In this document: piece by piece, positions 47,101 to 63,041 of the stretch
How the letters are laid out: each line of letters starts with the position of its first letter
Position numbering within the stretch: position 1 is the first letter of the stretch
Source: an uncultured Actinomycetes bacterium
Lineage (GTDB): Bacteria; Actinomycetota; UBA4738; HRBIN12
DNA: 64,000 nucleotides
Direction of reading: 5' to 3'
Assembly (NCBI GenBank): GCA_963723855.1
Contig: CAVRSI010000011.1
Coordinates: forward strand, 122,181-186,180
The notes under the pieces: generated by a model
The model's input: only the letters and a program-made list of their open reading frames with translations
Databases searched by the model: none
Told to the model about the DNA's origin: nothing
Made by a program: the position numbers and the translations under genes

Positions 47101-47760
47101 TACTTCGACGGGACGAAGCAGAGCGTGAAGGACTGATCTCCGAACAGGAACGTGGCACAGTCGCCGGCGACGTCCCGCAGCTCGAAGTTCCCCCCCGCGA
47201 ACGTGTCCCCTTCAGCCGGGTGGTAGACCGTGCCGTCGACCGACGACCGAGGCGTGCTGCACGCCGTTGGAGGTGTACGTGTCGATCAGCACCACCTCAT
47301 GACCGCCGATGGTCGTCGACGATCCGTTCGTCGGCGGCAGGGTCGGCCCGGTCGGTCCGGGGCCGGTCGTCCCACCGGTGGACCCCGTCGGCCCGGGACC
47401 CGTCGTCCCACCGGTGGACCCAGACGGCCCCGACGGCCCGGGTCCGGTGCCGGTGCCGCCGGTGGACCCTCCGGGCGCCGGGAACTGCGGCGGGATCGAG
47501 AACGGATCGCGCCCGGAGAAGATCGGGCTCGGGGCGGGTCCGCCGCTCTGCGACGGGGACACGCTGCCGGTCGGTCCGGTCGACGGAACGCCGGTGACGC
47601 CGGTCGGACCACCGCTCACCGATGGCCCCACCGAGAGCGGCGGCAAGGCCGATCCGCCGCCCTTCCCCAGCTGACCGAGAAGGAGCAGCGCGAGGACCAG
47701 CACGCCGGCCACGATGCCCCCGATCTTCAGCGCCTTACGGTCGCGTTCGTTGAGAGGCAT
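47101..47760 (-). CDS. PilP-like type IV pilus protein: N-terminal TM helix, Gly/Pro/Ser/Thr-rich tandem-repeat linker and a small C-terminal domain; apparent frameshift near 47225
   Basis: Reads [28 protein letters not shown]..., then a linker ([13 protein letters not shown] x2), then ...[19 protein letters not shown]. The continuation [46 protein letters not shown] (stop about 47101) is in the adjacent frame. Confidence 0.5.
47351..47421 (-). repeat. Two copies of a 36-bp in-frame tandem repeat encoding [12 protein letters not shown] inside the PilP-like gene
   Basis: Near-identical 35/36-nt units at 47351-47385 and 47387-47421. Confidence 0.8.
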
Positions 47761-47763
47761 CCG

Positions 47764-48414
47764 TCAGGCTCCTGGCTTCGTCTCGGCTGCCGGCGAAGGG
47801 CTCGTGGGCGCGGTCGTCGCGGTCGTCGCGCCGGCCGCAGAGGTCGGGCCAGGCGATGAACCCGGGCCAGCGCTCTCGTCGCTCGTGTAGATGTCGACCG
47901 AGGCGGTGAGGGTCAACAGGCTCGAGTTGCTTTCGGAGGGCGAGGGCGAGATCGACACCGCGGTCGTCTTCGCGGCGCGCGGGAGCGTCTCGACCTTGAA
48001 CAGGAACTCCGTGAGCGCGAAGTAGGAACCGGTGGTTGAGATGGCGTTGGCCACGGTGGACAGTCCCGTGGCCGGGTCGAAGATGGGATTGGTCGGCGTG
48101 ATCGTGACGACGTCGACCCCCGACTCCACGGCTGCGTTCTGCATCAGCAGCATGAACCCTTGCTGGTCGACGGTCGGCGGGATCGCTTGCTGGACCTTCC
48201 GGATGGTCTCCCGGTTCGCCGGGGCCTCTGCCTGGGCCGCCTGAAGAGCCGCCAATTGCGCACCCAAGGTCGCCTGCTGACCCTGCGCCTCCGCGAGAGC
48301 GGCGTTCGCATCCTTCACCTGACCCATCTTCGGCAGCACCAGGAAGAACCCCACCAGCACGACCGCGGCGGCGGCGGCGATCCCGGCGAACAGCGGCGCG
48401 CGCTTACCCCCCAC
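47764..48414 (-). CDS. pilO: Type IV pilus assembly protein PilO
   Basis: Has a TM helix (LFAGIAAAAAVVLVGFFLVL), a coiled-coil region and a periplasmic domain. Probable GTG start at about 48414. Confidence 0.7.
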   Translation of the reverse strand: MGGKRAPLFAGIAAAAAVVLVGFFLVLPKMGQVKDANAALAEAQGQQATLGAQLAALQAAQAEAPANRETIRKVQQAIPPTVDQQGFMLLMQNAAVESGVDVVTITPTNPIFDPATGLSTVANAISTTGSYFALTEFLFKVETLPRAAKTTAVSISPSPSESNSSLLTLTASVDIYTSDESAGPGSSPGPTSAAGATTATTAPTSPSPAAETKPGA

Positions 48415-49034
48415 CCTGCACGTCCCCTCGGCCGCGAGGCGTGAGCGCGTCCTCCGAAAGGTCGACCCCGCTGGTGAAGGTGTACAAGCCCGGTATTCGG
48501 ACCGGTCTCGGTGGCGCTCGAGACCCAAGGGTTGACCCATCCCTTAACCGATTCGAGCCTCGTGATCCAGCTCGCTAGGCTTTCGAACCCGTCCGCCGCC
48601 CCGCCGGCGGTGAACGACCCCACGAACGTCGTGGTGGTCGACGCCGCGGCTGTCCCGGTCACCGGCGCCGTGAGCGAGGCACTGAACGAAGAGAGGTACG
48701 CGTCCGATGGGATCGTGCGGGAGAGGTCCATCAGCATCTCCGAGAACGACACTTCGCCGACATACGCCTTCGCGAGCAGCGCCTCCTGCGCGGCGGCCTG
48801 CTCCTGGAGCTGCTGGAACTCCTGCAGCTGACCGATCTGAGCCTGGAGCTGCTGGTTCGTTGCGTTCTGTGCCGCGATGTCGTCGTTGATGCCCGCCAGC
48901 TTCTGGCTCTGCAGGAACCAGAAGGCGATGAGCAGCACGACCACCGCCGCACCGGCCCCGACGATCAGTGTGGTCTGCTGTTTGGTCTTCTGCCGTGCGC
49001 GAAGCTCAGGGGGAAGGAGGTTGACCTGACTCAC
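48404..49034 (-). CDS. pilN: Type IV pilus assembly protein PilN; possible frameshift near its 3' end (about 48460)
   Basis: Starts MSQVNLLPPELRARQKTKQQT with a TM helix. The ORF tail after ...SSATETGPNTG looks out of frame. The adjacent frame gives LYTFTSGVDLSEDAL... ending at TAA 48404, 8 nt before the pilO GTG. Confidence 0.8.
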
Positions 49035-50086
49035 GCGAAATGCCTCCCGGGGATGCCCAGGCCGACGGCCACCGCGAGCACCGGCTCCGCTTCGGCAAGC
49101 GCCTCCTCAGACAGGGACAGCTGCGACTTGGCCCGGCGGAACACGTGGCCGCGCTCGATCGTCGCGGGAACCCGTTCCTGCAGGAGCTCCAGGAAGCCCT
49201 GCAGCTTCGACCCGCCGCCGATCACCAGGACCCGCCCGATCCGGGCCCCACGCGTCTGGGCCGTGTAGAACTCGAGCGAGGACCGAACCTCGTCGACGAA
49301 GTTCTGCGCCCGCTGCATGGCGGCGCGATGGACCTCTTCCAGGTCGGGACCGCCCTCGACGGCCTCGCCGCGCTTCAGACGCTCGGCGACGTCGGCCTCG
49401 ACCCCGAAGTTCCGGGCGATCGCCAACGTGATGTCCCGGCCGCCCGACGGCAGGATCCGGACGAACCGCGTCACGCCCTTCTCGTGGACCAGGATGTTCG
49501 TGACCGTGGCGCCGATATCGACGATGGCCTCTTCGCCACCCTCTTCGTCCTCCATGCCGACCTCCGGCATGCCGACCGCGCGCGCCATGGCGAACGGAAC
49601 CAGGTCGACGCCGATCGGCTCGAGCTTCGCGGCGAGCGCGACATCGACGACCGTGTTCACCATCGCGCGCTGCGCGGCGACGAGGATGAGGCGCAGCATG
49701 CGGCGCCCCTCCTGCTCGAACTCTCCGAGCGGATCGAAGTCCAGGACGGCGTCCTCGACCGGCATGGGGATGAACTCCTGCGCCTGGAACCCGAGCGACG
49801 CTCGGAGCTCCTTCTCGGGGAGCCACGGGAGCGCGATCTCGCGCACCACCACCCGTTGGTTCCCGACACCCATGTAGACCTGCCGGCTCTTGAAGCCTCC
49901 GCGCTGCCAGAGCTCGCGCAACGCCTCGCTGACGACCTCGGGCTGGCGGATCTCGCCCGCCTCGACCGCCCCCTCCGGCAACGGCACCTGCGCCGCCCGA
50001 ACGACCACGGGGGTGTCGCCGCCCTGGAGCTCGGCGGCGCGCACGGCCGTCGCGCCGATATCCAGTCCGACCCGTACCTTCGCCAT
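49031..50086 (-). CDS. pilM: Type IV pilus assembly ATPase-like protein PilM
   Basis: 351 aa starting MAKVRVGLDIGATAVRAAEL, an actin-like fold typical of PilM. Confidence 0.9.
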   Translation of the reverse strand: MAKVRVGLDIGATAVRAAELQGGDTPVVVRAAQVPLPEGAVEAGEIRQPEVVSEALRELWQRGGFKSRQVYMGVGNQRVVVREIALPWLPEKELRASLGFQAQEFIPMPVEDAVLDFDPLGEFEQEGRRMLRLILVAAQRAMVNTVVDVALAAKLEPIGVDLVPFAMARAVGMPEVGMEDEEGGEEAIVDIGATVTNILVHEKGVTRFVRILPSGGRDITLAIARNFGVEADVAERLKRGEAVEGGPDLEEVHRAAMQRAQNFVDEVRSSLEFYTAQTRGARIGRVLVIGGGSKLQGFLELLQERVPATIERGHVFRRAKSQLSLSEEALAEAEPVLAVAVGLGIPGRHFA

Positions 50087-50293
50087 CTACGGACCCTCCG
50101 TCCGAACGGAGCGCTCCTCCAGGAAGCGCTCCAGGTCTGTCTCGCGCAGCCGGTAGTTCTTGCCGACGCGCACGGCCGGAAGCTCGCCGCTCTTGATCAG
50201 CCGGTAGACCGTCATGTTCGAGACCCGCATCGCGTTCGCGACCTCGGACACGGTCAGGAGACCGCCCGGAACGAACGGCTGCGACTCGCTCAC
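50087..50293 (-). CDS. Small MerR/excisionase-family HTH DNA-binding protein (BldC-like, 68 aa)
   Basis: GTG start; reads LTVSEVANAMRVSNMTVYRLIKSGELPAVRVGKNYRLRETDLERFLEE. It sits immediately upstream of pilM and is preceded by the SD GGAGGAGGG. Confidence 0.7.
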   Translation of the reverse strand: MSESQPFVPGGLLTVSEVANAMRVSNMTVYRLIKSGELPAVRVGKNYRLRETDLERFLEERSVRTEGP

Positions 50294-51469: not shown

Positions 51470-52288
51470 TTAACCGTCCGCGTTTGCCTCACTCTCACCG
51501 TGGAGGGACGGGTTGCTGATCAGTTCGGCGATGGCTAGCCCAAGCAGAACCAGTCGTCGTCGGGGAGGATCCCGCCTGCTGCGACGGCGCCGGCGCTTGC
51601 TGGCCCAAGATCTCAAGACAGATGCATCGGCTTCGCCAAGGCTTGGCGCATTCACCAAGGTGCCTTGAACAACCACCCCGATCGTGCAGGTGCCGCCGAC
51701 GCTGTAATAGAAATCCCCATTGAGTGCGGTGTTGATCGCCCCTGTCACGTTGAAATCGCCGAACACGCTCCTGTAACAAGTAGGTGCTCCGGCTGGTGGG
51801 GTGATATTGGCCGTCGTCGTAGCAGTCGTCGATGTGAGCAGGTATCTGCCCGCGTTCGCGTCCAGGGTGATGCCGGTAGCTGTCACCGAGATGCCTGTTC
51901 CGGGGCCGATGGACGCGAAGGTCGCGCTTGCGGCCGAGCAGGTCACGACGTCGGGCGAGATCACCCCGGTCAGCGAGCAGAGGGTCATCGTGGCCGCATT
52001 CGCGCCGTCGTAGACCTTGTCGGCCGCAGTCACGGTTGCGGTCACCGGCCGATACAGCGTCCCGCCTTTGGCCCCATAGCCTATGCAGAGCGCCTCACTT
52101 GGAAACGTTGTTCCGTCCGCGCGGACGAGCGTTTGCCAGCCGCCCTTCTGACAGAGTTTCGCATTCGTGGAGTTGCTGCCAGCGAAAGCGATTCCGACGT
52201 TGACGACGAGCATCACAACCACAAGGCCGAACGTCGCCACGATCGAGACCATGCGTCGAGCCCTTCGGCGCTCACGTCTCGCCCTCAT
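51470..52288 (-). CDS. Secreted/membrane-anchored protein with an MBG/YDG-type adhesin-repeat signature, in a lower-GC island
   Basis: Has an Arg-rich N-terminus plus hydrophobic segment (MVSIVATFGLVVVMLVVNVGIAFA) and a Cys-containing region. It carries a KVYDG...LTGVISPDVVTCSAASATFAS...GRYLLTSTTATTTANIT block typical of MBG/YDG repeats. Local GC is about 55-60%. The C-terminal ~60 aa may be out of frame. Confidence 0.5.
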   Translation of the reverse strand: MRARRERRRARRMVSIVATFGLVVVMLVVNVGIAFAGSNSTNAKLCQKGGWQTLVRADGTTFPSEALCIGYGAKGGTLYRPVTATVTAADKVYDGANAATMTLCSLTGVISPDVVTCSAASATFASIGPGTGISVTATGITLDANAGRYLLTSTTATTTANITPPAGAPTCYRSVFGDFNVTGAINTALNGDFYYSVGGTCTIGVVVQGTLVNAPSLGEADASVLRSWASKRRRRRSRRDPPRRRLVLLGLAIAELISNPSLHGESEANADG

Positions 52289-52656: not shown

Positions 52657-53436
52657 TCACGATTCGCGCTCACGTGACCGAACGGAGGTACCAGTCTGCG
52701 ATCGTCGCACCCCAAGCGTCGCTGTGATGGCGCCCGCCGCAAGGAACGGCCCGAATGGGATCGCGCTCTTTCGCCCGCGGCCGGCGAGCAGGGCGACGAG
52801 GCCTCCCAGACCCCCGAGCAAGACTGCGACGCCGGCCGCCACAGCGACGCAGCGCAAGCCGAGCGCTCCCATCATCAAGCCGATCAGCGCCGTCAGTTTC
52901 ACGTCGCCCATGCCGAGGCCTCGAGGCGCTATCAACGCGATGAGCATGAACAGACCCCCGTAGGCGAGCACACCCACGATCGCGCGCAGCGGGGCCAGCG
53001 GTTGGCCGATCGCCCACCCGAGGACGATCGCGGCGGCGAACGCTGGGAACGCGGGATAGGTGATCCGGTTAGGGATGATGCGATGCTCCAGGTCGATGGC
53101 ACCCACGGCGAGCATCGTCGCGCAGAAGGCGACAGAACCACGATCAGATGAGATCTGTGGATAAACGATGGCGACCCCCGCGAACAAGGCCGCGGTCCCC
53201 CCCTCCAGCACGGGATATCGGACCGGGATCGGTGCACGGCACGAGCGACACCGACCGCCGAGAAGGAGCCACGAAAGGACCGGGATGTTGTCGCGACTCT
53301 TGATCTCGGCACCGCAGTGCGGGCAGCGCGACCGCGGTGAGACGATCGATTCCTTCTTCGGGATCCGGTCGACGACGACGGTCAGGAAGCTCCCGACAGC
53401 GAGTCCGAACGGTACCGCGACGAGGGCACGGATCAC
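52657..53436 (-). CDS. pilD: Type IV prepilin peptidase (A24 family) PilD
   Basis: Has N-terminal zinc cysteines (CPHCGAEI...CRSCRAPI), catalytic Asp motifs including GMGDVKL, and multiple TM segments. Confidence 0.9.
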   Translation of the reverse strand: MIRALVAVPFGLAVGSFLTVVVDRIPKKESIVSPRSRCPHCGAEIKSRDNIPVLSWLLLGGRCRSCRAPIPVRYPVLEGGTAALFAGVAIVYPQISSDRGSVAFCATMLAVGAIDLEHRIIPNRITYPAFPAFAAAIVLGWAIGQPLAPLRAIVGVLAYGGLFMLIALIAPRGLGMGDVKLTALIGLMMGALGLRCVAVAAGVAVLLGGLGGLVALLAGRGRKSAIPFGPFLAAGAITATLGVRRSQTGTSVRSRERES

Positions 53437-53475
53437 GCGTCACTCACGCGCAAACCTTAGCGCCCCTACCAGACC

Positions 53476-54957
53476 GGACCATGGAACCTACGAGGCCTCG
53501 CGCACGTACGCGATGTCCTCGCGGAACGAAGTGATGGTGCCGTAGCCCGGAACGAGCACCGGGCGGAACGTCATCGTGTAGTTGTTCCCGATGACGACAG
53601 TGCCGCCCATGACCTGGCCGTAGTAGTTGTTCTGGTTGTTCATGTTCGCCGCGCAGGGTGTGTAGAAGAAGACCTGGGTGTTGGAGTCGAAGTTCGTGAG
53701 GTTCCCGACGCTGACGTCCTTGCTTGACGTGCCTGTCGGGCAGGGAGATGGAGCGGGCCATGTGCTGATGAAGAAGATGCTCTCGGTCGCGGAGGCTCCG
53801 TTCCAATTGGATTTCTGCTGGAGGTTGATGCCCCAGTCCGTGATGATCGCTAGGTTCCCATTGACACCTATCGTCTTGTTGTTGCCGTTCGAGAACGTGC
53901 AGGGGGTCGCGCCGGGTCAATCCGCACGACGAAGCTCCCAGACCAGGAACCCTCGACGAACGATCGGGCCTGACTGCAGGCGTCTCCCACCGAGAACGTA
54001 TTGCCTCCGCATGTCGTGGACGCCGACGCGCCAAACGTGCATACCGTGTATCCCGCATTGACCCAGTTCGTTTGGTCCGTCGCCGTGAACGTGATCTGAG
54101 GGAAGGGTTGGGTCGGAGGCCTGGGCGACACGGTGTTCGTGTATGACGTTCCGGCCACGGAGACCCCGCTGATCGTCGTGCCCGCAGTAGCGCTGTTGCC
54201 GATCGATTCGCTGCCGCCGATCGAGGAGCTTGAAGAGGTGACGCTGCCCGAGACGCTCGTGGGGTTGGCCATGGTCACACTGTCGTTGGCCCACAGGTTC
54301 CCCTGGATGTTCGAGTTGTTTGAGATCGACGCCGCCCCGTATGGGATGTAGACGTTGCCGCGAATGCGTGGCGTGTTCGTGATGACGAGGTCGCCGTTCA
54401 ATATGTACACGTCGCCGTCGTTCCCGTTATTGCCGTAGATGTCGAAGTTGTTCGGGAAGTTCGCGCCATTGTTGGTAAGGACGGCGGCTCCGAAGCCCCC
54501 GTAGACAGGCATTAGTCGGATGTAGGTCTGCATCGTCCTCGGGGTTTGACCGCCAACCGTTCCCGTAGTGGTGATGAATACCGACGACGGGTAAACCGCG
54601 TCGGTAAAGGGACAGTTCATCACGTGCGCAGGGGTAAGCAAACCACTGGCGTCGTAAAAGGTCGGCGTCGCAGTGAAGCTAGCGCTCGCCGGCGCGCTCG
54701 CGATCGACTGGGTCACGGGGTTACAGCTCAGCGTCGTAACCGGGGTGGACTGCAGGAGCGCGTAGTAGTAGTTCGCGCCGGATTCGGCGGCGTCTACTGA
54801 GGTCAGCCTTTGCCGGTCGTAGCCAGTGGACTGCGCGTCGTGGATCGACTGCGCGACGATCACGGTGGACAGGATCAGCAGCACCATGCTCACGAGGAGG
54901 GCGATCACCATCGCCATTCCTTCCTCTCCGCTCGATCGGATGCGCATCGTTAGCTCC
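53476..54957 (-). CDS. Large PilX/PilY-like pilus-associated protein (about 490 aa); apparent frameshift at a C5 run near 53905
   Basis: The SD TAAGGAG precedes an ATG at about 54957. It starts MRIRSSGEEGMAMVIALLVSMVLLILSTVIVAQS and has Asn/Gly-rich beta-solenoid-like repeats (NGANFPNNFDIYGNNGNDGDVYILNGDLVITN...). The C-terminal ~140 aa (GVNGNLAIITDWGINLQQK...FREDIAYVREAS) is in the adjacent frame. Confidence 0.5.
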
Positions 54958-54984
54958 TTACGGTTCACGTTGGCACGTTCGTGG

Positions 54985-55580
54985 GCAGGGTGGCGCAGAC
55001 GGCGAGCGGATAGCCGAACGAGGTGTTTCGGCCCGTCACCGAGGTCTGCAGTCTTTGGGTCGCATTGGCGGACCCCGTCGGGGTCCGAGTTGACGAGGAA
55101 CTGCACCGTCATCGTCCGCCCGGTAGGATCAAGCGTGAATGCGCTCTGTGATTGGGCGCGGTTCAAGATGCCGTCGGCAACGACCTGCCAGGTCAAGGCT
55201 CCCGGCGTGATGTTCGGCTTCCAATACCCGTACATCAGCTGGTTCTGACTGTTGATCGTCCACAGAGCGCAGCGGCTGATGTCATCCTGTGCTGAGTAGG
55301 CCTGGGTGTAGATGAGGAACGTATACCCTGCGGCGTTGGGCGGGTACAGGAGATTGCCGGAGCGCACCTGGCGGTCGATCGTCTGCATGGCGAGGCGGAC
55401 CTGGTTGATCGTTCTGGACCGCACGTCCTCGTTCACGCTTGCCTTCTGGATCGATGTCAAGGTCGATAGCAGGATCACCATGGCGATCGACAGGATGCTC
55501 ATGGCAACCACTAGCTCGACGAGCGTCATGCCTCCGTGTTCGTGGAGGCGCTGCCGTAGCTTGGCGATCCGATTCGCCAT
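54985..55580 (-). CDS. Minor pilin with prepilin-type N-terminal cleavage/methylation domain
   Basis: Starts MANRIAKLRQRLHEHGG|MTLVELVVAMSILSIAMVILLS (G-1, E+5). Its 3' end is unresolved because the track ORF runs into the next gene, so a terminal frameshift is likely. Confidence 0.65.
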
Positions 55581-55585
55581 CCCTA

Positions 55586-57369
55586 TCACCCGGCCGCCGG
55601 CGCGGGAGCGTAGACACTTCGCGTGAGCATCGTCCCCATGTTGATAGCGATGTTCAGGTTTATCGCCGTCGCCCCGTCGACGATCACCACGTAGTGCACC
55701 GTCGCCTTGAAGGGCGTCACGCTTGAGTCCTCGGCCGTGCACTGGGTGAGCGTCGCGCTCGGCGTGCACGTCCGGGTCGAGCCGGACGTGGCTGCTTGGA
55801 TCCCGAGCTCACCGAGATGGTCACCGTGACAACGTGCCCGCCGACCGTGGCGGTCTGGGTCGCGGGAGGCGCAACGATGTTGTTGAGCAGCGCATCTGTC
55901 ACCGAGCGAGAGGTGTAGCTTGCACCGTTCCAGTAGGAGATCGTGCCGGCCGACGGGGCGGCCGCCGGCGCGGCCGTGGTCGTCGACCCCGCCTGGGAGG
56001 TCGCGCTGTCCCGGTATCCGGTCATCGAGAGCAGGTAGCCAGTCCAACCGGCCGGCGCGCCGACCGCCGCCGGGAAGGCGCCGATGTTCACCTGGCCGAT
56101 GTTCCGGGTGGCCGACCGCGACGCTGCCGTCCTTGCCGGGGTCCACCTGGCGATTGACGAAGGACGTGTTTGGGTTGCTCGCGGCCGCGTCGACGCTCGC
56201 AAGCGCCGCGGTGCCGAGGCCCCCAGCAAGTCCATTGAGAGTCATGGAGGCCGTCAGAGGCGCCTCCCTGCTGGATCCGCCCGCCGACGCAAGGGAGGTT
56301 ATCGGTCTCAGCCGTATCGGTCGGGGGCGGGCAGACGTTGGTTCCCCCGGCAGCGACCGCGGCGTCGGCCAAGCCGGCGTCATTCGGTGGCGCTCCAGGT
56401 CGATGGACGTCGAGCCGTTGGTGGACGAAACCGCACCGCCTAGGCCCGAAACCGGCAGACTCGTACCGTAGGTGAGGGCGGGTGCTCCCGGGTCTGAGTC
56501 CGCGGCGCTCGCCGTCGTGAGCGTACCGGCGTCCGTCCGTGTGCCAGCCCCATCTGTCACCGAGACCTGGGACTCCGAGAACGACGCCCGACCTACCGTC
56601 ACTTGCTCGTTCTGAAGGTTCGACTCCGTTCCAGTCAGACCGAGGTAGCCGCTCGTGAAGTTGTTCAGGCCCTGGATCGACCCGCTGATATCGATATGCG
56701 CTGCCGGCACCTGCGCGAGGCCGTAAAAGGACGGTTGGCACGGAGCCGCGAATGGGTGGGTCGACGAGCTCAGGCACCCACTCGGCGACGAGAACAGGCT
56801 CTGGATCTGAACGAGGTTGTTGGCCTTGTTCGGGTAGGCAGCGCTTGTCCAGCTAATCATGACGGTGACCCGGTACGGGGTCATCGCGGGGCAGGTGGCC
56901 GTCACCGAAGGGCAGTCGTTAGTGACGTAGGTCTGCCAGTTGAAAGCGATGTTATTCGTCGTCGCGGTCGCGGCGATCGTGCCGGTGTGTGGATTGATCC
57001 ACGGCGTCGAAGGCACGCCACCGGAGTTCACGATCCGCTCGCCTGAGCAGGACTGGAACCGGTAGACGATCGGTGTCCCCCCACAGTTCGCGATGTTCGG
57101 GTCTGTTAGATCACTGCTGGACAGCCCCGTCTGGATCTTCGAGTACGCCTGCCCTCGGATGGTCTCCATGATCTGGTCCGCGATGCCGTCGGCGGTGACA
57201 CGCTCGCGGCCGTAGGCGATCGAGTGGAACCCGAGGGTCGCCGTGTACGCCATCGCGACCATGGCGGCGAAGATGATCGTGATCGCGATCATCGTCTCGA
57301 TGATGGTGAATCCGCGCTGGTCGTCTTTGGCGAGCGCAGACAGGCGCCTTGCAGTATCGCCCGGGTCAT
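55586..57369 (-). CDS. Large minor pilin / pilus tip protein with prepilin leader; several apparent frameshifts (leader at about 57349, body at about 56400 and about 55760)
   Basis: The ATG at 57369 (SD GGGAAGGA) gives MTRAILQ in one frame. The joined reading would be RRLSALAKDDQRG|FTIIETMIAITIIFAAMVAMAY. The body is Thr/Ser-rich and its pieces lie in at least two frames before the common stop at about 55586. Confidence 0.55.
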
Positions 57370-57723
57370 ACGGTCCTTCCCTATGTCAACAGCTGTCGAG
57401 TAATGGGTCGGCAACTCGGCTGGCCGGCTTGAGGTCATCTGGGGGATATCCCGCGGATCGGGTAGGTCGAACGACTCAGGTTCCTTGGGTACCGGACCGT
57501 GGCAGGATTCCTTGAGGGAGGACGACACCTCGTCTGATACACATGCCCAAGAGAACGGAGCACACAGAAGGGGCGGCCCGGAGGCCGCCCCTTGCGTGTG
57601 TGCCGTTCCTGATCGTCTGTTACGGAATGCGGGTGCCGCGGCCGCAGCAGCAGCGGTGCCTGTGCAGTTGGCCGGCGCGCGGTGGAACCATAGGTGGTGC
57701 CTCCGGCAGCCGAGTCTTTGATC

Positions 57724-58122
57724 TAGTAGCAGGTACCCGACGCGGACAGGCGGTCCGCCGACCAAGAATTGTGTTTGGGGCGCCGTAATGTCGGCGGCAC
57801 CGGCCGGAGCGGTGCATCCATCGTCTGTGGCAGCCGGGGCGCCGCCACGTAGCACAGCGACGGCTCGACCGTCTTCAGGCCGGTCGCGGCCGGTCGTCTG
57901 CGACCTGCGTATGGTGCTGGCGTCCGTGTAGATCGTCTTCGCAGCCACGAGGGCGTTGCGAAGGTCGGACTGCGCCGCGCGGTTCTGGGCCCGGGTACGG
58001 GCGCCCAGGAACGTCGGCAGTGCGATGGCGATCAGGATGCCGATGATCAGAACGACCACCATCAGCTCGATGAGGGTGAAGCCGTCCTCATCCTGCTTGC
58101 GCTCGAAATAGCGCTTGAGCAT
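57724..58122 (-). CDS. pilA: Type IVa major pilin paralog 1; apparent frameshift near 57905
   Basis: Starts MLKRYFERKQDEDG|FTLIELMVVVLIIGILIAIALPTFLGARTRAQNRAAQSDLRNALVAAKTIYTDAST, preceded by SD GGAAGGGAG. The Cys-containing C-terminal segment (...EPSLCYVAAP...GTCY) is in another frame. Confidence 0.8.
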
Positions 58123-58172
58123 CTGCGTCAACTCCCTTCCTTGGATCTCGTGGCACGCCCGTGCGGCGCACC

Positions 58173-58808
58173 CTACTGGGTCAGGGTTTCGGCGTCTGCG
58201 GCATCCTGCTTGAGGGCTCGGCGCTCGTCCGTCCATGAATACCTGGGAACGGGTAGGACGCGGGCTACCAGCCGGCGGCGGCGGGGCTGTCGCGGCGGTC
58301 GCGGTTCGCCGCTGCCCACGTCGCCGTGCAGTTCGGCGGCCGTCGTCTTCCCGTACTTGGTCCCGGTCGTGCCGTCGAGGATCACGAAGCACGTGCTGCG
58401 ACGCCGACAGCCGAGCCGCGGAGAACTGCGTCGCCGTCGAGTGGACGCTGATCGACCCGATCCCGCTCCCGCTGGCGCACGCCGGGAGCGACGGGGTTCG
58501 TCGCCGCCGATGCCTGCCGTTGGCACGTAACACATGTTCGGGATGATCGTGACGAGCCCGTGCCGGACTCGTCGGCGGATGTGAACGTGGCGTTGTCCGT
58601 GTACAGGATCCGCGCCGCCAGGACCGCGTTCCGCAGGTCCGATCTGGGCGGCGCGGTCCTGGAACCTCGCCCGCACGCCGAGGAACGTCGGCAGGCCCAT
58701 CACGATCAGGATGGCGAGGATCATCACGACGACCATCAACTCGATGAGCGTGAAGCCGTCCTCGTCCTCGTCGCAAGCCGTCTGCCAGGTTCGGAGCACC
58801 GGTGCCAC
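58173..58808 (-). CDS. pilA: Type IVa major pilin paralog 2; multiple apparent frameshifts
   Basis: GTG start with SD GAGAGGAG; reads MAPVLRTWQTACDEDEDG|FTLIELMVVVMILAILIVMGLPTFLGVRARFQDRAAQ. The continuations SDLRNAVLAARILYTDNATF... and ...IIPNMCYVPTAG... are in other frames. The 3' end is uncertain. Confidence 0.7.
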   Translation of the reverse strand: MAPVLRTWQTACDEDEDGFTLIELMVVVMILAILIVMGLPTFLGVRARFQDRAAQIGPAERGPGGADPVHGQRHVHIRRRVRHGLVTIIPNMCYVPTAGIGGDEPRRSRRAPAGAGSGRSASTRRRRSSPRLGCRRRSTCFVILDGTTGTKYGKTTAAELHGDVGSGEPRPPRQPRRRRLVARVLPVPRYSWTDERRALKQDAADAETLTQ

Positions 58809-58982
58809 CTCCTCTCGCTCGTCAGCGTCGACGGCCGGGGACCCGTCCGTCGCACCGTCTTTCACGAGATATCGGCACGGATGCCGTCGAGGGTTGACCC
58901 CTCCGGCCCGCCGACGCGGACCGGAGGGACAAGAGCCAACGTTCGACGTACGTAGAACCGGCGGATCACTACGTACGTGGCC

Positions 58983-60199
58983 TTACTGGATCAGCTTGAT
59001 GATGTTGAACATCGGCATGTAGAGCGCGATGACCGCGGCTCCCACGGCTCCTCCGATGATCGCGATCAGGAGCGGCTCGATCAGCGACGTCAGGGCGTCG
59101 ACCGACGCCTCGACCTCCTGGTCGTAGAACTTCGCGACCTTCTCGAGCATGGTGTCGACCTGGCCGGTCTCCTCACCCACCGCGAGCATCTGCACGACCA
59201 TCGGCGGGAACACGGCGTGCCTCGCGAGCGGCTTGGCGATCGACTCACCTTCGCGGACGCTCGCCTGCACGTCGACGACCGCCTTCGACATCACCTTGTT
59301 GTTCACGGTGTCCGCGACGATGTCCAGCGCCTGCAGGATCGGGAACGCCCGAGCGCAGCAGCATCGCCGGCCGTGCTGGAGAAGCGGGACAGCGCGGTCT
59401 TGTGGAAGAGCGTGCCGAAGATCGGGATCTTCAGCTTGAGCGCGTCGAGCGTCGCCCGTCCGGCTTCCGTCTTCTTGTACCGCCTGAAGAGGAACGACGA
59501 ACACGAACGTGAGCATGATGAGGAGTCACCAGTACTTCTTCACCGCGTCCGAGGCCATGAGCAGGACCCGGGTCGGCAGCGGCAGCGTGCCGCCGAGCTG
59601 CGTGTAGATGGTCTTGAACTGCGGCACGACGAACAGCAGCATCGCCGACATGATCAGGACGACCAGCGCGACGACCGCGACCGGGTACGTCATGGCCGAC
59701 TTGATCTTCTGCCGCAGGTGCACCTCGCGCTCGAGCACGTCGGCCAGCCGGAGCAGCACGTCGTCCAACATCCCGCCCGTCTCGCCCGACTTGACCATGG
59801 CGATGTAGAGGTCGTTGAACGCCTTGGGGAACTTCGCCATGGCCACGGACAGGCTCGAGCCCTGCTCGACGTCGTTGCGGACGAGCGTCAGGGTCTTCGC
59901 GAGCTCCTTGTTGCTGACCTGGTCGGACAGGATCGACAGCGCGCGCAGGATCGGCAGGCCGGAGTTGACCATGGTGGCGAACTGCCGGGAGAAGATCGCG
60001 ACTTCCTTGAGCTTGATCTTCGCCGGCCTGATGTTGATCTCGAGGTTGAGGCCCTTCTTCTCCTTGCCGACCTCGAGCGGGGTGTACCCCATCTCGCGGA
60101 GGCGCTCGAGGACCAGGCGCTCGTTGTCGGCGACGAGGGTCCCCGTGACGAGGTTCCCGGACTTGTCCCGGACCTTGTACTGCGTAGGACTCAGACATA
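58983..60199 (-). CDS. pilC: Type IV pilus inner-membrane platform protein PilC (GspF family); at least three apparent frameshifts (about 60185, 59530, 59400)
   Basis: The ATG overlaps the pilT stop. The first GspF repeat (...FSRQFATMVNSGLPILRAL...) is in the 59526..60482 frame. The second repeat (...FPILQALDIVADTVNN...LIEPLLIAIIGGAVGAAVIALYMPMFNIIKLIQ) is in the 58983..59516 frame. The central TM segment is in a third frame. Confidence 0.85.
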
Positions 60200-61357
60200 G
60201 TCGCCTCCCGACATCATCGAGCCCATCGCCATGGCTCCGCCGCCGTCCATCGGAGGCGGAGCGGAGGCGCCGCCGACCAGCCGCTGGAGCTCCTCGGGGT
60301 CGTGGCAGCGCTCGAACGCCACCTGCTGGTTGATGCGGCCGGCCTTCACGTGCGCGGCGATCGACATGTCCATCGTCTGCATCCCGTACCGGCCGCCGGC
60401 CTGCATCGCGGAGTAGATCTGGTGGACCTTGCCCTCGCGGATCAGGTTGCGGATGGCCGGGGTCGTGACCAGCACCTCGCACGCCGCGACGCGTCCCTGG
60501 CCGTCGGTCGTCTGGAGCAGCTGCTGCGTGACGACACCCTGAAGCGTGGTCGCCAGCTGCACCCGCACCTGCTGCTGCTGGTGCGGTGGGAACACGTCGA
60601 TGATGCGGTCGATCGTCTGCGGCGCGTCCTGCGTGTGCAGGGTCGCGAAGACCAGGTGGCCGGTCTCGGCCGCCGTGATCGCGGTCGAGATCGTCTCGAG
60701 GTCTCGCATCTCACCGACCAGGATGACGTCGGGGTCCTGACGCAGGACGTGCTTCAGGGCCTGGCCGAACCCGTGCGTGTCGGCGCCGACCTCGCGCTGG
60801 TTCACGATGCACTTCTTGTGCTTGTGCAGGAACTCGATCGGGTCCTCGACGGTCATGATGTGGCCGGCCCGCTCCTCGTTGACCACGTCCACCATGCCGG
60901 CGAGCGTGGTCGACTTGCCCGAACCCGTCGGGCCCGTCACCACGACGAACCCACGCGGGAACCGGGCGAGGTCGGCGACCACGCCCGGGAGGCCGAGGTC
61001 TTCGAGCTTCTTGATCTCGAACGGGATGAGCCGGAACGCCGCGCCGAGCGCGTCGCGCTGCTGGTAGACGTTCACACGGAAGCGCGCCTGACCCGGCAGG
61101 GAGTAGGACATGTCCAGCTCCAGCTCCTGCTCGAACCGCTCGCGGAGCTTCTGCGGCAGGATCGCGTAGATCATGCCCTGAAGCGCCCGGGGCGTCAGCG
61201 GAGGATACTTCTCCAGCCGCTCCAGCTCGCCGTTCACACGCACGACGGGCGGGGTCCCCACCGTGAGGTGGAGGTCCGAACCGCCAACCTCCAAGAGCGC
61301 CGTGAGCAGCTCCGGGATCGGGATATTCACGTCGTCTTGATCTGCTTGCATCACCAT
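60191..61357 (-). CDS. pilT: Twitching motility ATPase PilT
   Basis: 388 aa with Walker A GPTGSGKST, the PilT AIRNLIRE motif, and an intact frame. Confidence 0.95.
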   Translation of the reverse strand: MVMQADQDDVNIPIPELLTALLEVGGSDLHLTVGTPPVVRVNGELERLEKYPPLTPRALQGMIYAILPQKLRERFEQELELDMSYSLPGQARFRVNVYQQRDALGAAFRLIPFEIKKLEDLGLPGVVADLARFPRGFVVVTGPTGSGKSTTLAGMVDVVNEERAGHIMTVEDPIEFLHKHKKCIVNQREVGADTHGFGQALKHVLRQDPDVILVGEMRDLETISTAITAAETGHLVFATLHTQDAPQTIDRIIDVFPPHQQQQVRVQLATTLQGVVTQQLLQTTDGQGRVAACEVLVTTPAIRNLIREGKVHQIYSAMQAGGRYGMQTMDMSIAAHVKAGRINQQVAFERCHDPEELQRLVGGASAPPPMDGGGAMAMGSMMSGGDYV

Positions 61358-61358
61358 C

Positions 61359-63041
61359 TCACTTCACCACCCTTGCGATCTCTCCGATGGATGTCCGGCC
61401 CATGCGGGCCTTCTCCAGACCGTCGTCACGAAGCGTCATCATTCCCTGCTCGATCCCGGTCTTCCGGATCTCATCGGCAGATGCCCGGTCGACCGTGAGC
61501 CGTTGGATCTCCTCCGTCATCGGCATGACCTCGTACAGACCTGCACGTCCGCGGTAGCCCGTGTTCGAGCATGCCGAGCAGCCGGCCGGATGGAACAGCG
61601 TGTCGATCTCCGGGATCAGCCAGTCCGGGTAGCCGGCGGCCACCAGTTCCGCGTGCTCGGGCTTGTACGCCTCCTTGCATCGCTCGCAGAGCATCCGGAA
61701 GAGGCGCTGGGCGACGACGCAGTCGATCGCGGACGCCACCAGGAACGTCTCGACCTCCATCTCCACCAGCCGCGAGATGGCCGATGCGGCGTCGTTCGTG
61801 TGCAGCGAGGAAAGGACGAGGTGACCGGTGAGGGCGGCCTCGATCGCGATCGTGGCCGTCTCCTTGTCGCGGATCTCACCGATCAGCACGATGTCCGGGT
61901 CGGCACGAAGGATCGACCGCAGGGCCGACGCGAAGGTGAGCCCGGCCTTCGGGTTCACCTGCATCTGGTTCACGCCGTCCAGGCGGTACTCGACCGGGTC
62001 CTCGACCGTGATGATGTTGCGGTCTTCCTGGTTCAAGATGTTGAGCGTCGCGTACATGGTGGTCGACTTCCCCGAACCGGTCGGCCCGGTCACCAGGATC
62101 GCGCCGTACGGCTTGCTGAACGACGCGGAGAACCGCTTGTAGGCGTCGTCGGAGAAGCCCAGATCCTCGAGGCGAAGGAGCGCCTGGGACTTGTCCAGGA
62201 CGCGGATGACGATCTTCTCGCCGTAGACCGTGGGGAGCGTCGCGACACGCAGATCGAGCGTGCGCCCGCCGACCCGCATGCTGATGCGGCCGTCCTGCGG
62301 CACCCGCTTCTCCGCGATGTTCAGGTCGGCCATGACCTTCAGCCGGCTGATCAGGCCGCCCTGGATGTTCTTGGGCGAGTGCATGACGTCGTGGAGCACG
62401 CCGTCCACGCGGAACCGGACGCGGACGTCCCGCTCGGTCGGCTCGATGTGGACGTCGGAGGCCCGGTCGCCCACCGACTGGGTCATGATCGCCTGCACGA
62501 GCTTGACGATCGGTGCTTCCTCGAGCGCCGCCTCCAGCTGTTCATCGTCGCCCTCGAGCTGTTCGGAAGCCTGCGACGCAAGGGCTTCGACCTGCCCGTC
62601 CATGCCGGCGAACTTCTGGATCGCCTGCTCGACGTCGGCGGCCGTCGCCACCACCGGCTGGACGTCGCGGTTCGTGATCGTGCGGATGTCGTCCAGCGCG
62701 TAGACGTTCGCGGGGTCCGACATCGCGACCAGGAGCTTGCCGTCGCGTTCCCCGATCGGGATCGCGCGGTACCGGCGCGCGAGCGCATCCGGCAGCAACA
62801 TCGTGGACGAGGGATCGATGTGATAGTCGGCCAGGTCGACGAACTCCAACCCGACCTGCTCGGCGAGGGCGCGGACCAGGTCCGCCTCCTTGATCAACCC
62901 GAGGTCGATCAGGACGCGGCCGAGCGACTTGGGGGTCTTGCGATGCTCCTCGAGCGCCTGCTCCAGTTGCGCAGCAGTGATGAGACCCTGTTCGATCAGG
63001 ATCTGTCCGAGTTGCTTCGCCTTTCGCTTGACCGTAGTCAT
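61359..63041 (-). CDS. pilB: Type IV pilus assembly ATPase PilB (GspE family)
   Basis: 560 aa with N-terminal GSPII domains, Walker A GPTGSGKST, and a tetracysteine zinc motif (CERC...CSAC). Confidence 0.95.
   Translation of the reverse strand: MTTVKRKAKQLGQILIEQGLITAAQLEQALEEHRKTPKSLGRVLIDLGLIKEADLVRALAEQVGLEFVDLADYHIDPSSTMLLPDALARRYRAIPIGERDGKLLVAMSDPANVYALDDIRTITNRDVQPVVATAADVEQAIQKFAGMDGQVEALASQASEQLEGDDEQLEAALEEAPIVKLVQAIMTQSVGDRASDVHIEPTERDVRVRFRVDGVLHDVMHSPKNIQGGLISRLKVMADLNIAEKRVPQDGRISMRVGGRTLDLRVATLPTVYGEKIVIRVLDKSQALLRLEDLGFSDDAYKRFSASFSKPYGAILVTGPTGSGKSTTMYATLNILNQEDRNIITVEDPVEYRLDGVNQMQVNPKAGLTFASALRSILRADPDIVLIGEIRDKETATIAIEAALTGHLVLSSLHTNDAASAISRLVEMEVETFLVASAIDCVVAQRLFRMLCERCKEAYKPEHAELVAAGYPDWLIPEIDTLFHPAGCSACSNTGYRGRAGLYEVMPMTEEIQRLTVDRASADEIRKTGIEQGMMTLRDDGLEKARMGRTSIGEIARVVK

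Follow-up and report, generated by a model that had tools for sequence, protein, structure and literature searches.

A probable pilus-tip complex with two unusually large minor pilins in an uncultured actinobacterium

The type IVa pilus operon of an uncultured actinobacterium appears to include a minor-pilin set in which two of the three subunits are unusually large. In the window, by which we mean the whole stretch of 64,000 nucleotides that was analysed, positions 53488-57369 of the minus strand encode three consecutive prepilin-like proteins, here G3, G4 and G5, once seven frame breaks are corrected. We think it probable that the three make up the minor pilins of a retractile type IVa pilus in a monoderm, most likely the assembly-nucleating, tip-located core of the GspI-J-K / PilV-W-X kind, and in our best reading G5 is the cap and G3 a second bulky tip head, probably an adhesive one. 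A tip or adhesin complex had been suggested in an earlier, sequence-only reading of this DNA; it is the best reading because the three genes belong to a type IVa pilus operon and immediately precede the gene for the prepilin peptidase. The features are as follows.

61359-63041 (-): PilB; first of the pilus motor/platform genes, which together span 58983..63041 (-)
60191-61357 (-): PilT
58983-~60200 (-): PilC
57600..58800 (-): two tandem pilin paralogues (EDGFTLIELMVVV..), presumed major pilins, heavily frameshifted
55586..57369 (-): G3, large modular minor pilin, ~594 aa
55589..56736 (-): C-terminal all-β module of G3, placed from the AF2 model of a homologue
54966..55580 (-): G4, minor pilin of ordinary size, ~204 aa
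53488..54947 (-): G5, cap pilin in the PilX/GspK position, ~486 aa
54095..54500 (-): Asn/Gly/Ser/Thr-rich β-solenoid coils of G5, residues ~150-285, placed from AF2, fold matches and composition
52657..53436 (-): prepilin peptidase (PilD, A24 family), directly downstream of G5
47764..50086 (-): alignment-complex genes PilM (49031-50086), PilN and PilO

The operon order is PilB-PilT-PilC-pilin-pilin-G3-G4-G5-PilD...PilM-N-O, with the cognate prepilin peptidase and the assembly machinery (PilB, PilT, PilC, PilM-N-O) in the same operon as G3 to G5. The minor pilins had been placed downstream of pilA in the sequence-only reading, and a pilin does lie upstream, but as two tandem paralogues and not as a single pilA. 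At an intact syntenic locus (L001), the counterparts of these paralogues measure 176 and 173 aa.

What kind of subunit is G5? It starts with ATG at 54947, with AAGGAG upstream, and its N-terminus, MRIRSSGEEG/MAMVIALL (the slash follows the leader Gly), has the leader Gly and the helix without Glu5. The family consensus is ERG/VAMIVAL, and 118 homologues have Ile or Val at position +5. The traits of a GspK/PilX-type cap are present, namely the missing Glu5, the last place in the run of minor-pilin genes and a bulky extra domain, AF2 giving a pilin plus a solenoid. Membership by sequence is another matter: NCBIfam T2SS_GspK gives 13.5 bits against a cut-off of 130, on the N-terminus only, and G5 does not belong to Pfam PilX_N or T2SSK, PF14341 being precomputed on only one of 120 homologues. 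Some sources call homologues PilX.

The AF2 model of a G5 homologue (pLDDT 89.8, pTM 0.79) has a long helix (residues 8-67), a pilin sheet (78-147), a β-solenoid with short strands (154-253), an alpha/beta region and terminal strands (471-484). When this model was compared with the PDB by Foldseek, the top three matches were chains of the Thermus tip pilin ComZ (6qvi; E 2e-7 to 4e-5, probability 1.0), aligned over about 580 columns, followed by ice-binding solenoids and then by the C-domains of Caldicellulosiruptor tapirins. Structure prediction, which the sequence-only reading had named as a check, has thus yielded a β-solenoid whose best structural match is a tip pilin. The NG-rich peptide quoted in that reading corresponds to G5 residues ~160-191; the solenoid it foresaw in both large proteins holds for G5, whereas G3 carries a different all-β module. 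Searches by sequence give a fainter picture. The profile of the 118 homologues recovered solenoid repeats only from the PDB sequences, without ComZ at E<=1, and Pfam/NCBIfam returned weak bactofilin and YdcK solenoid matches.

The tapirins (PDB 4WA0, 6N2C) resemble G5 in their β-helix C-domain, the fold match being weak (E 5e-3). Their genes belong to a type IV pilus locus, and they attach to cellulose. As far as we know, they lack a class III signal peptide and do not count among the pilins.

The Thermus thermophilus tip pilin ComZ (PDB 6QVI) contains a solenoid as an insertion (PMC6561018). Like ComZ, G5 is a GspK-like pilin that joins a pilin-like domain and a large triangular β-solenoid in one chain, and it too is encoded last in its minor-pilin gene run; the order of sheet, solenoid and terminal strands in the G5 model is compatible with a ComZ-like insertion. 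Pilins of this type, G5 included, are too bulky for the shaft and would therefore be tip subunits. The two differ in that no sequence similarity is detectable (11-12% identity in the structural alignment), in a global TM of about 0.3 (0.26-0.31), and in that G5 is acidic and belongs to a monoderm actinobacterium without a secretin.

Does G5 then serve DNA uptake? ComZ, its best structural match, is a DNA-binding protein with a GspI-like pilin as its partner (PMC6561018), and PilT-driven retraction is present, so that a competence pilus with G5 as a ComZ-like DNA receptor at its tip deserves a hearing. DNA binding by ComZ, however, uses Lys98 and Lys233. Mature G5 has a pI of 4.6 and only three Lys, none of them in the solenoid, for which reason DNA binding of the ComZ type is doubtful; G3 is acidic as well. 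The profile search gave no homology of G5 to ComZ, and inspection of ORFs between 38 and 64 kb of the window turned up neither comEA nor comEC. We consider the competence explanation unlikely, and a relationship to ComP, raised in the sequence-only reading, found no support.

The N-termini of G3 and G4 are those of conventional pilins. G3 starts with ATG at 57369, with GGAAGGA upstream, and its leader, MTRAILQ..DDQRG/FTIIE, is a class III signal peptide with Glu5 present and the cleavage site G/FTIIE at about 57311/57310. That of G4, MANRIAKLRQRLHEHGG/MTLVEL (...GG/MTLVE), is likewise a class III signal peptide with Glu5. N_methyl (Pfam PF07963), whose cut-off is 21.2, scores 24.1 bits on G3 and 26.1 bits on G4; both proteins also exceed the cut-off of TIGR02532, and the two families (A4, A5) show little or no variation at the leader Gly and Glu5. 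Together with the Glu5-less start of G5, these N-termini agree with the class III or PilX-type starts that had been read from the sequence. G4 is otherwise an ordinary minor pilin, with a ..TGRNTS.. motif at its C-terminus; Pfam/NCBIfam found N-terminal pilin motifs only in 33 homologues, and the family profile matched only N-terminal helices among PDB sequences. Matches of G3 and G4 to PilV, GspI, PpdC, ComGE and HpsB/C are N-terminal only and all below threshold, and they do not fix the I, J or K subtype.

Most of G3 is of a different character. Its pilin module (residues ~20-195) is followed by a conserved Cys-flanked hinge, SSPSGC..THPFAAPCQPSFYG (~195-217), and behind the hinge by an all-β C-terminal module of ~380 aa. 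In the AF2 model of a homologue (P0121; pLDDT 88.8) the pilin module occupies residues 20-195 and a separate β module residues 214-587, with low confidence at the hinge (208-210); the module consists of about 27 strands, connected up-and-down. This is the layout of a modular type IV pilin, with an N-terminal pilin module, a short linker and a separate extra module, although the extra module is not a recognisable domain that also occurs outside pilins. Used alone as a query, it found 304 cluster representatives and lies in them, with few exceptions, at residues ~200-600 and behind a pilin module. Neither Pfam nor NCBIfam matched the module in 11 family members, where N-terminal pilin motifs were all that was found, and the family profile matched N-terminal helices only among PDB sequences. 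Foldseek of the model against the PDB gave only outer-membrane barrels, at TM 0.1-0.2 and with rmsd above 20 Å, and because of these values we treat them as no match; BFVD yielded no match at E<=0.001. In the model, then, outer-membrane β-barrels seem to be the sole, and poor, structural neighbours of the module. Comparison of the module's thirds by hhalign revealed no internal repeats, and hhalign of the G3 family with the G5 family aligned the signal peptide and helix region only.

How might these subunits work together? The adjoining prepilin peptidase would cut behind the leader Gly in G3 and G4 and probably behind Gly10 in G5, and the three would associate in the membrane through their N-terminal helices. 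It is known that a K subunit without Glu5 caps the HIJK complex (PMC9934059, PMC8179133). From its missing Glu5 and rigid β-solenoid, we propose that G5 can be the topmost subunit only, where it would cap or plug the tip with a solenoid built into the pilin fold, as in Thermus ComZ and cyanobacterial PilX. The ~380-aa all-β module of G3 would be displayed beside the cap as the second tip head, by way of the Cys-flanked hinge. Underneath, the two pilin paralogues would polymerise, driven by PilB, and PilT would retract the fibre. Both heads are acidic and rich in Asn, Ser, Thr and Gly. They most likely mediate adhesion to a surface, a polymer or a cell, and the tip proteins may set substrate specificity, as the sequence-only reading had suggested.

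Comparison with known systems is instructive. The resemblance to GspI-GspJ-GspK and PilV-PilW-PilX lies in the gene order, with a bulky Glu5-less subunit last and machinery genes adjoining, and in the weak N-terminal PilV, GspI and PpdC matches of G3 and G4, none of which reaches a family-model cut-off. It ends where the α-domain of GspK is replaced by a solenoid in G5, where the I-position protein is about 590 aa long rather than about 120-180 aa, and where no H-like (GspH/FimU-like) fourth subunit was found. In cyanobacteria, the solenoids of PilX have been proposed as a tip plug that replaces PilY1, and a dedicated PilV partner co-occurs with PilX (bioRxiv 10.64898/2026.02.12.705559). PilX-Com and PilX-EPS/HpsA are subunits in the PilX position with a β-solenoid resembling ice-binding proteins, as is G5, and HpsB/HpsC are among the weak N-terminal matches of G3 and G4, far below cut-offs. 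The partner here, G3, differs in bearing a 380-aa extra module, and the likeness to the cyanobacterial proteins stops short of demonstrated homology.

A parallel among monoderms is Streptococcus sanguinis, which has two major pilins and three minor pilins, two of the latter being large modular proteins. The minor pilins form a tip adhesin complex, for which a role in priming assembly and in presenting adhesive heads has been proposed (PMC9934059, PMC8179133). PilA-PilB-PilC with PilE1/PilE2 and the present set are alike in being a monoderm type IVa pilus with tandem major pilins encoded in one operon, and in having two large modular subunits among three minor pilins and one subunit without Glu5. 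In S. sanguinis, however, the modules are recognisable vWA and lectin modules on short linkers, whereas here there is a solenoid within a K-like pilin plus an unclassified β module; and in S. sanguinis it is the small subunit that lacks Glu5.

All of this presumes that the genes are what the corrected frames say. The sequence-only reading was right to worry about frame breaks in all three genes, as they are present in the window sequence: third-codon-position GC frame plots and tblastn frames place five in G3 (at about 57340, 56410, 56270, 56115 and 55805), one in G4 (about 55085) and one in G5 (about 53910). Are they errors or decay? Seven breaks in 3.9 kb and further ones in both pilin genes, together with intact PilB, PilT and PilM, are what one might see if these were decaying pseudogenes of a defunct pilus with real frameshifts. 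Yet breaks also affect housekeeping genes of the window that are essential (aroC/aroK, efp/nusB, pyrC/carA), and PilC too; the corrected frames contain no in-frame stops or deletions; and dN/dS is 0.15-0.29 in every segment of them, indicating purifying selection. Related MAG contigs from long-read soil assemblies give fragmented matches too, and mixed strains, through errors in the consensus, could account for the excess of breaks in the variable cassette. Given the broken housekeeping genes and the dN/dS values, the breaks are most likely consensus errors, and decay strikes us as quite improbable.

Could the large proteins instead be non-pilin tip adhesins or mechanosensors of the PilY1/PilC type, a likeness that the sequence-only reading had also entertained? 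They are large, are encoded in a pilus operon and have repetitive β-rich sequence. Both, however, have pilin N-termini, Pfam shows no β-propeller (PF05567/IPR008707), and neither of the predicted folds, one a solenoid and the other a meander sheet, is a propeller; nor was a PilY1 encoded or matched in the window region examined. This explanation is very improbable. That the long ORFs are artefacts of reading across frames, hiding several short ordinary minor pilins, is suggested by the frame breaks of the window copy but can be dismissed almost entirely, as intact homologues of 580-640 aa and 460-500 aa number in the hundreds, each protein has one N-terminal methylation motif only, and the AF2 models are confident single chains.

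The homologues leave the lengths in little doubt. More than 100 uninterrupted full-length homologues exist for G3 and for G5. Frame-corrected G3 is colinear over its full length with intact homologues of 580-640 aa (up to 85% identity, E=0), and G5 with intact homologues of 460-500 aa (up to 83%, E 5e-257); in locus L001, G3, G4 and G5 are 602, 210 and 485 aa. The two unusually large pilins, of about 490 and about 590 aa, that were noticed in the broken sequence are thus borne out, and the frame breaks resolve to large ORFs rather than to several short pilins. The order G3-G4-G5-prepilin peptidase-pilM is kept in about 50 Actinomycetota MAG loci, and there is no cultured representative of the clade among the matches.

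What evolutionary role might such a tip have? The G3-G4-G5 cassette is mosaic and has diverged faster than its flanks, and between close relatives the heads of G3 and G5 diverge far faster than the machinery genes. Since the cassette is apparently exchanged between strains as a unit, it could be a rapidly diversifying recognition device. It is possible, and we offer it tentatively, that the G3 module is a previously undescribed fold of ~27 long antiparallel strands, carried exclusively on the PilV-position pilin, and that with the ComZ-like cap it makes a two-headed tip, peculiar to a large clade of uncultured soil and groundwater Actinomycetota, that acts as a diversifying recognition device and not as a simple plug. 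The targets of such a tip could be a polymer, a partner cell or prey, or it could have a role as a phage-receptor decoy.

To our knowledge the type IV pili of Actinomycetota are almost unstudied. A bulky solenoid cap that replaces PilY1, known from Thermus and cyanobacteria, would seem to occur in monoderm actinobacteria as well; here it comes with another giant pilin, a modular one with an extra module that is unclassified. The architecture is in keeping with current models of tip complexes built from minor pilins and overturns no concept. For learning what these soil bacteria attach to, the two heads are well-modelled targets (pLDDT about 90), and the G3 module, with about 300 clusters, is a candidate for a new Pfam-type domain family.

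The folds, operon context and conservation of G3, G4 and G5, three neighbouring minor-pilin-like genes, support the core of the sequence-only reading, namely that unusually large minor pilins may form a pilus tip or adhesin complex. Genes were called by translating all three frames, plotting third-codon-position GC by frame and reading the DNA directly. In the window (63-72% G+C), a type IVa pilus operon occupies ~47.7-63.0 kb of the minus strand, listed here with the gene that follows it:

63041-61359, minus: PilB
61357-60191, minus: PilT
~60200-58983, minus: PilC
~58800-57600, minus: two tandem pilin paralogues
57369-55586, minus: G3, ~594 aa, ATG at 57369 preceded by GGAAGGA
55580-54966, minus: G4, ~204 aa, leader ..HEHGG/MTLVELVVAM
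54947-53488, minus: G5, ~486 aa, ATG at 54947 preceded by AAGGAG
53436-52657, minus: prepilin peptidase (PilD), after G3-G4-G5
51470-52288, minus: YDG-domain secreted or membrane-anchored protein (YDG-type repeat ..KVYDGANAAT..), adjoining the peptidase downstream
50087-50293, minus: 68-aa helix-turn-helix ORF (..LLTVSEVANAMRVSNMTVYRLIKSGELPAVRVGKNYRL..), excisionase/MerR-like, directly upstream of pilM
50086-47764, minus: PilM-PilN-PilO
47212-47760, minus: 182-aa protein just after pilO, with a membrane helix at the N-terminus and a Pro/Gly/Thr/Ser-rich low-complexity region behind it

The helix-turn-helix ORF could regulate the pilMNO part, and the 182-aa protein may serve the monoderm machine as a PilP-like or cell-wall-spanning part. 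The YDG protein (PF18657) is kept at the equivalent place in L001, a related locus (GCA_936415725.1). Downstream of the operon lies a housekeeping block, aroC-aroK-aroB, efp-nusB and pyrR-pyrB-pyrC-carA. The tandem pilin paralogues have nearly identical N-terminal halves (EDGFTLIELMVVV...TRAQNRAAQSDLRNA), and the pair recalls PilE1/PilE2 of the heteropolymeric S. sanguinis pilus.

Are the large ORFs real? The re-called coordinates and sizes match the span of 53476-57369 and the lengths of ~590 and ~490 aa first read from the sequence, and the NG-rich peptide quoted there lies in G5. The frame breaks reported for all three genes are likewise present: five frame changes are needed in G3 (near 57340, 56410, 56270, 56115 and 55805), and one each in G4 (~55085) and G5 (~53910). 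Frame-corrected G5 retrieved 201 proteins, and nearly every one of the best 120 is 460-500 aa long and covers 97-100% of the query (top identity 83%, E 5e-257); corrected G3 retrieved 186, mostly 575-640 aa, at full coverage and up to 85% identity. The closest homologues are colinear with the corrected proteins across every inferred junction, the sole difference being a ~6-residue gap at one of them. L001 is an intact syntenic contig, reading PilB-PilT-PilC-pilin(176)-pilin(173)-[PMT, opposite strand]-602 aa-210 aa-485 aa-prepilin peptidase. The large ORFs are therefore real, and a set of several short ordinary pilins is excluded by these uninterrupted, colinear homologues and by L001.

The frame breaks are most likely artefacts. 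Breaks also affect PilC (58983-60200), the aroC/aroK fusion-like ORF (46965-45307), efp/nusB (42722-41718) and pyrC/carA (39856-37409); PilB, PilT and PilM are intact. The broken essential housekeeping genes and the intact pilus genes together point to a noisy assembly whose consensus errors are more frequent where strains vary. Mixed-strain consensus errors are a plausible cause, because the pilin and minor-pilin region, where breaks are denser than in PilB, PilT and PilM, is also the most strain-variable. Matches by tblastn are similarly fragmented in many related contigs, which come from long-read soil MAGs. Each corrected frame segment of G3-G5 is under purifying selection, with dN/dS against L001 of 0.15-0.29 (PilT, 0.13; PilB, 0.06).

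The N-terminus of G5 is MRIRSSGEEG/MAMVIALLVSMVLL, and the family consensus, ERG/VAMIVAL, has a nearly invariant leader Gly and no Glu at +5, an absence that is a hallmark of the GspK/PilX cap subunit (PMC9934059). The matches in Pfam and NCBIfam were weak: GspK at the N-terminus, and the solenoid-type families bactofilin (E 0.004) and YdcK. When the family profile was run against PDB sequences, it returned the same solenoid proteins. In an AlphaFold2 model of the homologue P0002 (81% identical to G5; first of 118 input sequences; pLDDT 89.8, pTM 0.79), residues 8-67 form a helix and 78-147 a four-stranded sheet; strands of 3 residues follow one another over 154-253, as is typical of a beta-solenoid, before an alpha/beta region that closes with long strands. 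In a Foldseek search of the PDB, three Thermus thermophilus ComZ chains (6QVI) rank first (E 2e-7 to 4e-5, probability 1.0, ~580 aligned columns); behind them, at least three orders of magnitude weaker, come ice-binding solenoids and the tapirin C-domains 4WA0 and 6N2C. ComZ, a GspK-like pilin into which a solenoid is inserted, binds PilA2 (GspI-like) and DNA, and its position at the pilus tip has been argued on steric grounds (PMC6561018). All cyanobacterial PilX homologues are reported to share this solenoid-pilin architecture, and solenoid PilX has been proposed to substitute there for the PilY1 plug (2026 preprint, bioRxiv 10.64898/2026.02.12.705559). Given the Glu5-less N-terminus, the solenoid model and the top fold match, G5 as modelled has the architecture of a ComZ-like cap and, by inference, would occupy its position too. 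Membership of a ComZ sequence family is rejected, with identity of 11-12%, a global TM of ~0.3 and ComZ missed by the profile. The comparisons with PilY1 and ComP made in the sequence-only reading found no support.

The signal peptide of G3 (MTRAILQ..AKDDQRG/FTIIETMIAITIIF) is a canonical class III one with Glu5. N-terminal matches of G3 to PilV, GspI and HpsB are weak, and sources name its homologues PulG or PilV. The AlphaFold2 model of its homologue P0121 (85-87% identical; first of 115 input sequences; pLDDT 88.8, pTM 0.67) comprises a pilin module (~20-195) and ~27 up-and-down beta-strands spanning 214-587. Between the modules lies a nearly invariant motif, SSPSGC-x4-THPFAAPCQP(S/F)FYG, flanked by two conserved Cys (G3 residues ~194-217, window ~56790-56720); it coincides with the sole low-confidence stretch inside the model (hinge 208-210), and a disulfide-locked hinge and a processing site are both possibilities. 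A second conserved Cys pair brackets CPPPTDTAETDxLPC. The beta module had no Pfam or NCBIfam match (11 members tested) and none among PDB sequences; Foldseek found nothing in BFVD and otherwise only outer-membrane barrels (TM 0.1-0.2, rmsd above 20 Å), which we count as no match. No internal repeats were found in it, and G3 and G5 have nothing in common past the N-terminus. An exhaustive phmmer search with the module alone against 1.84 billion cluster representatives (E<=0.001) found 304 proteins in which, fragments aside, it nearly always occupies residues ~200-600 of 560-640 aa, that is, behind a pilin module. G3 thus fits the defined class of modular pilins (PMC8179133), with a beta module for which the libraries searched have no entry so far.

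G4 is a minor pilin of ordinary size in which the leader Gly and Glu5 are invariant and a C-terminal TGRNTS motif is conserved; family models (PpdC, GspI, ComGE, HpsC) match its N-terminus only, all below cut-offs, and it may be of I or J type.

How might these proteins work together? Protein features, folds, operon context, conservation and selection are observed; the steps are drawn from GspI-J-K and PilV-W-X and from the S. sanguinis PilABC complex. PilD would process the three proteins, which would nucleate assembly in the membrane and finish at the pilus tip. G5, being bulky and without Glu5, would be the terminal subunit, with the G3 module as a second head beside it; the shaft would be built from the two pilin paralogues and the fibre retracted by PilT. 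S. sanguinis is a close parallel, as it also has two major and three minor pilins, two of the latter large. An adhesive role of the tip heads is most likely, because they are acidic, rich in Asn, Ser, Thr and Gly and rapidly diverging, and because solenoid neighbours bind ice or cellulose. The main rival is a role in competence, where ComZ offers lysine-mediated DNA binding; G5 is acidic (pI 4.6) and has 3 Lys, none within the solenoid, a composition that argues against binding of that kind. The system combines a ComZ/PilX-solenoid-type cap with a modular pilin whose module is unclassified, and does so in a phylum-level context that is poorly studied.

Comparison of window 53400-59400 with two related loci reveals opposite patterns. 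L002 has 99% amino-acid identity in PilM and 88-95% nucleotide identity over the pilin genes (57800-59400), falling to ~60% amino-acid identity over G3-G5 and 67-77% nucleotide identity there and over PilD, whereas L001 has 79-92% nucleotide identity over cassette and PilD and 70-83% over the pilins. The slot between the second pilin and G3 also varies: it is empty in the window (~57600-57369, ~230 bp), holds an opposite-strand PMT-family (protein O-mannosyltransferase-like) glycosyltransferase in L001 (6059-7387), and in L002 (2045-5426) a frameshifted PMT and a secreted protein of 653 aa, whose propeller-like repeats read WFTE..GN.IGRIT and whose Ig-like segments are duplicated. These patterns suggest that pilin and minor-pilin cassettes are exchanged modularly between relatives by recombination. 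In these relatives the PMT could glycosylate pilins; tblastn found no PMT gene within the window.

Scanning one genome per GTDB species gave 65 loci, nearly all titled uncultured Actinomycetota or Actinomycetes MAGs. By tblastn with the window proteins, the order G3-G4-G5-peptidase-PilM holds in ~50 of the 65, and where contigs extend far enough, PilT lies ~2 kb upstream of G3. Some MAGs have a second, more divergent G5-like gene (32-38% identity) elsewhere on the same contig, as in L059 and L064, second loci of the genomes to which L031 and L054 belong. For L059 tblastn found no G3, G4, PilD or PilM partner. L064 retains the full PilT-G3-G4-G5-PilD-PilM set and so seems to be a complete locus in its own right, which suggests that some genomes may encode more than one variant of the cap.
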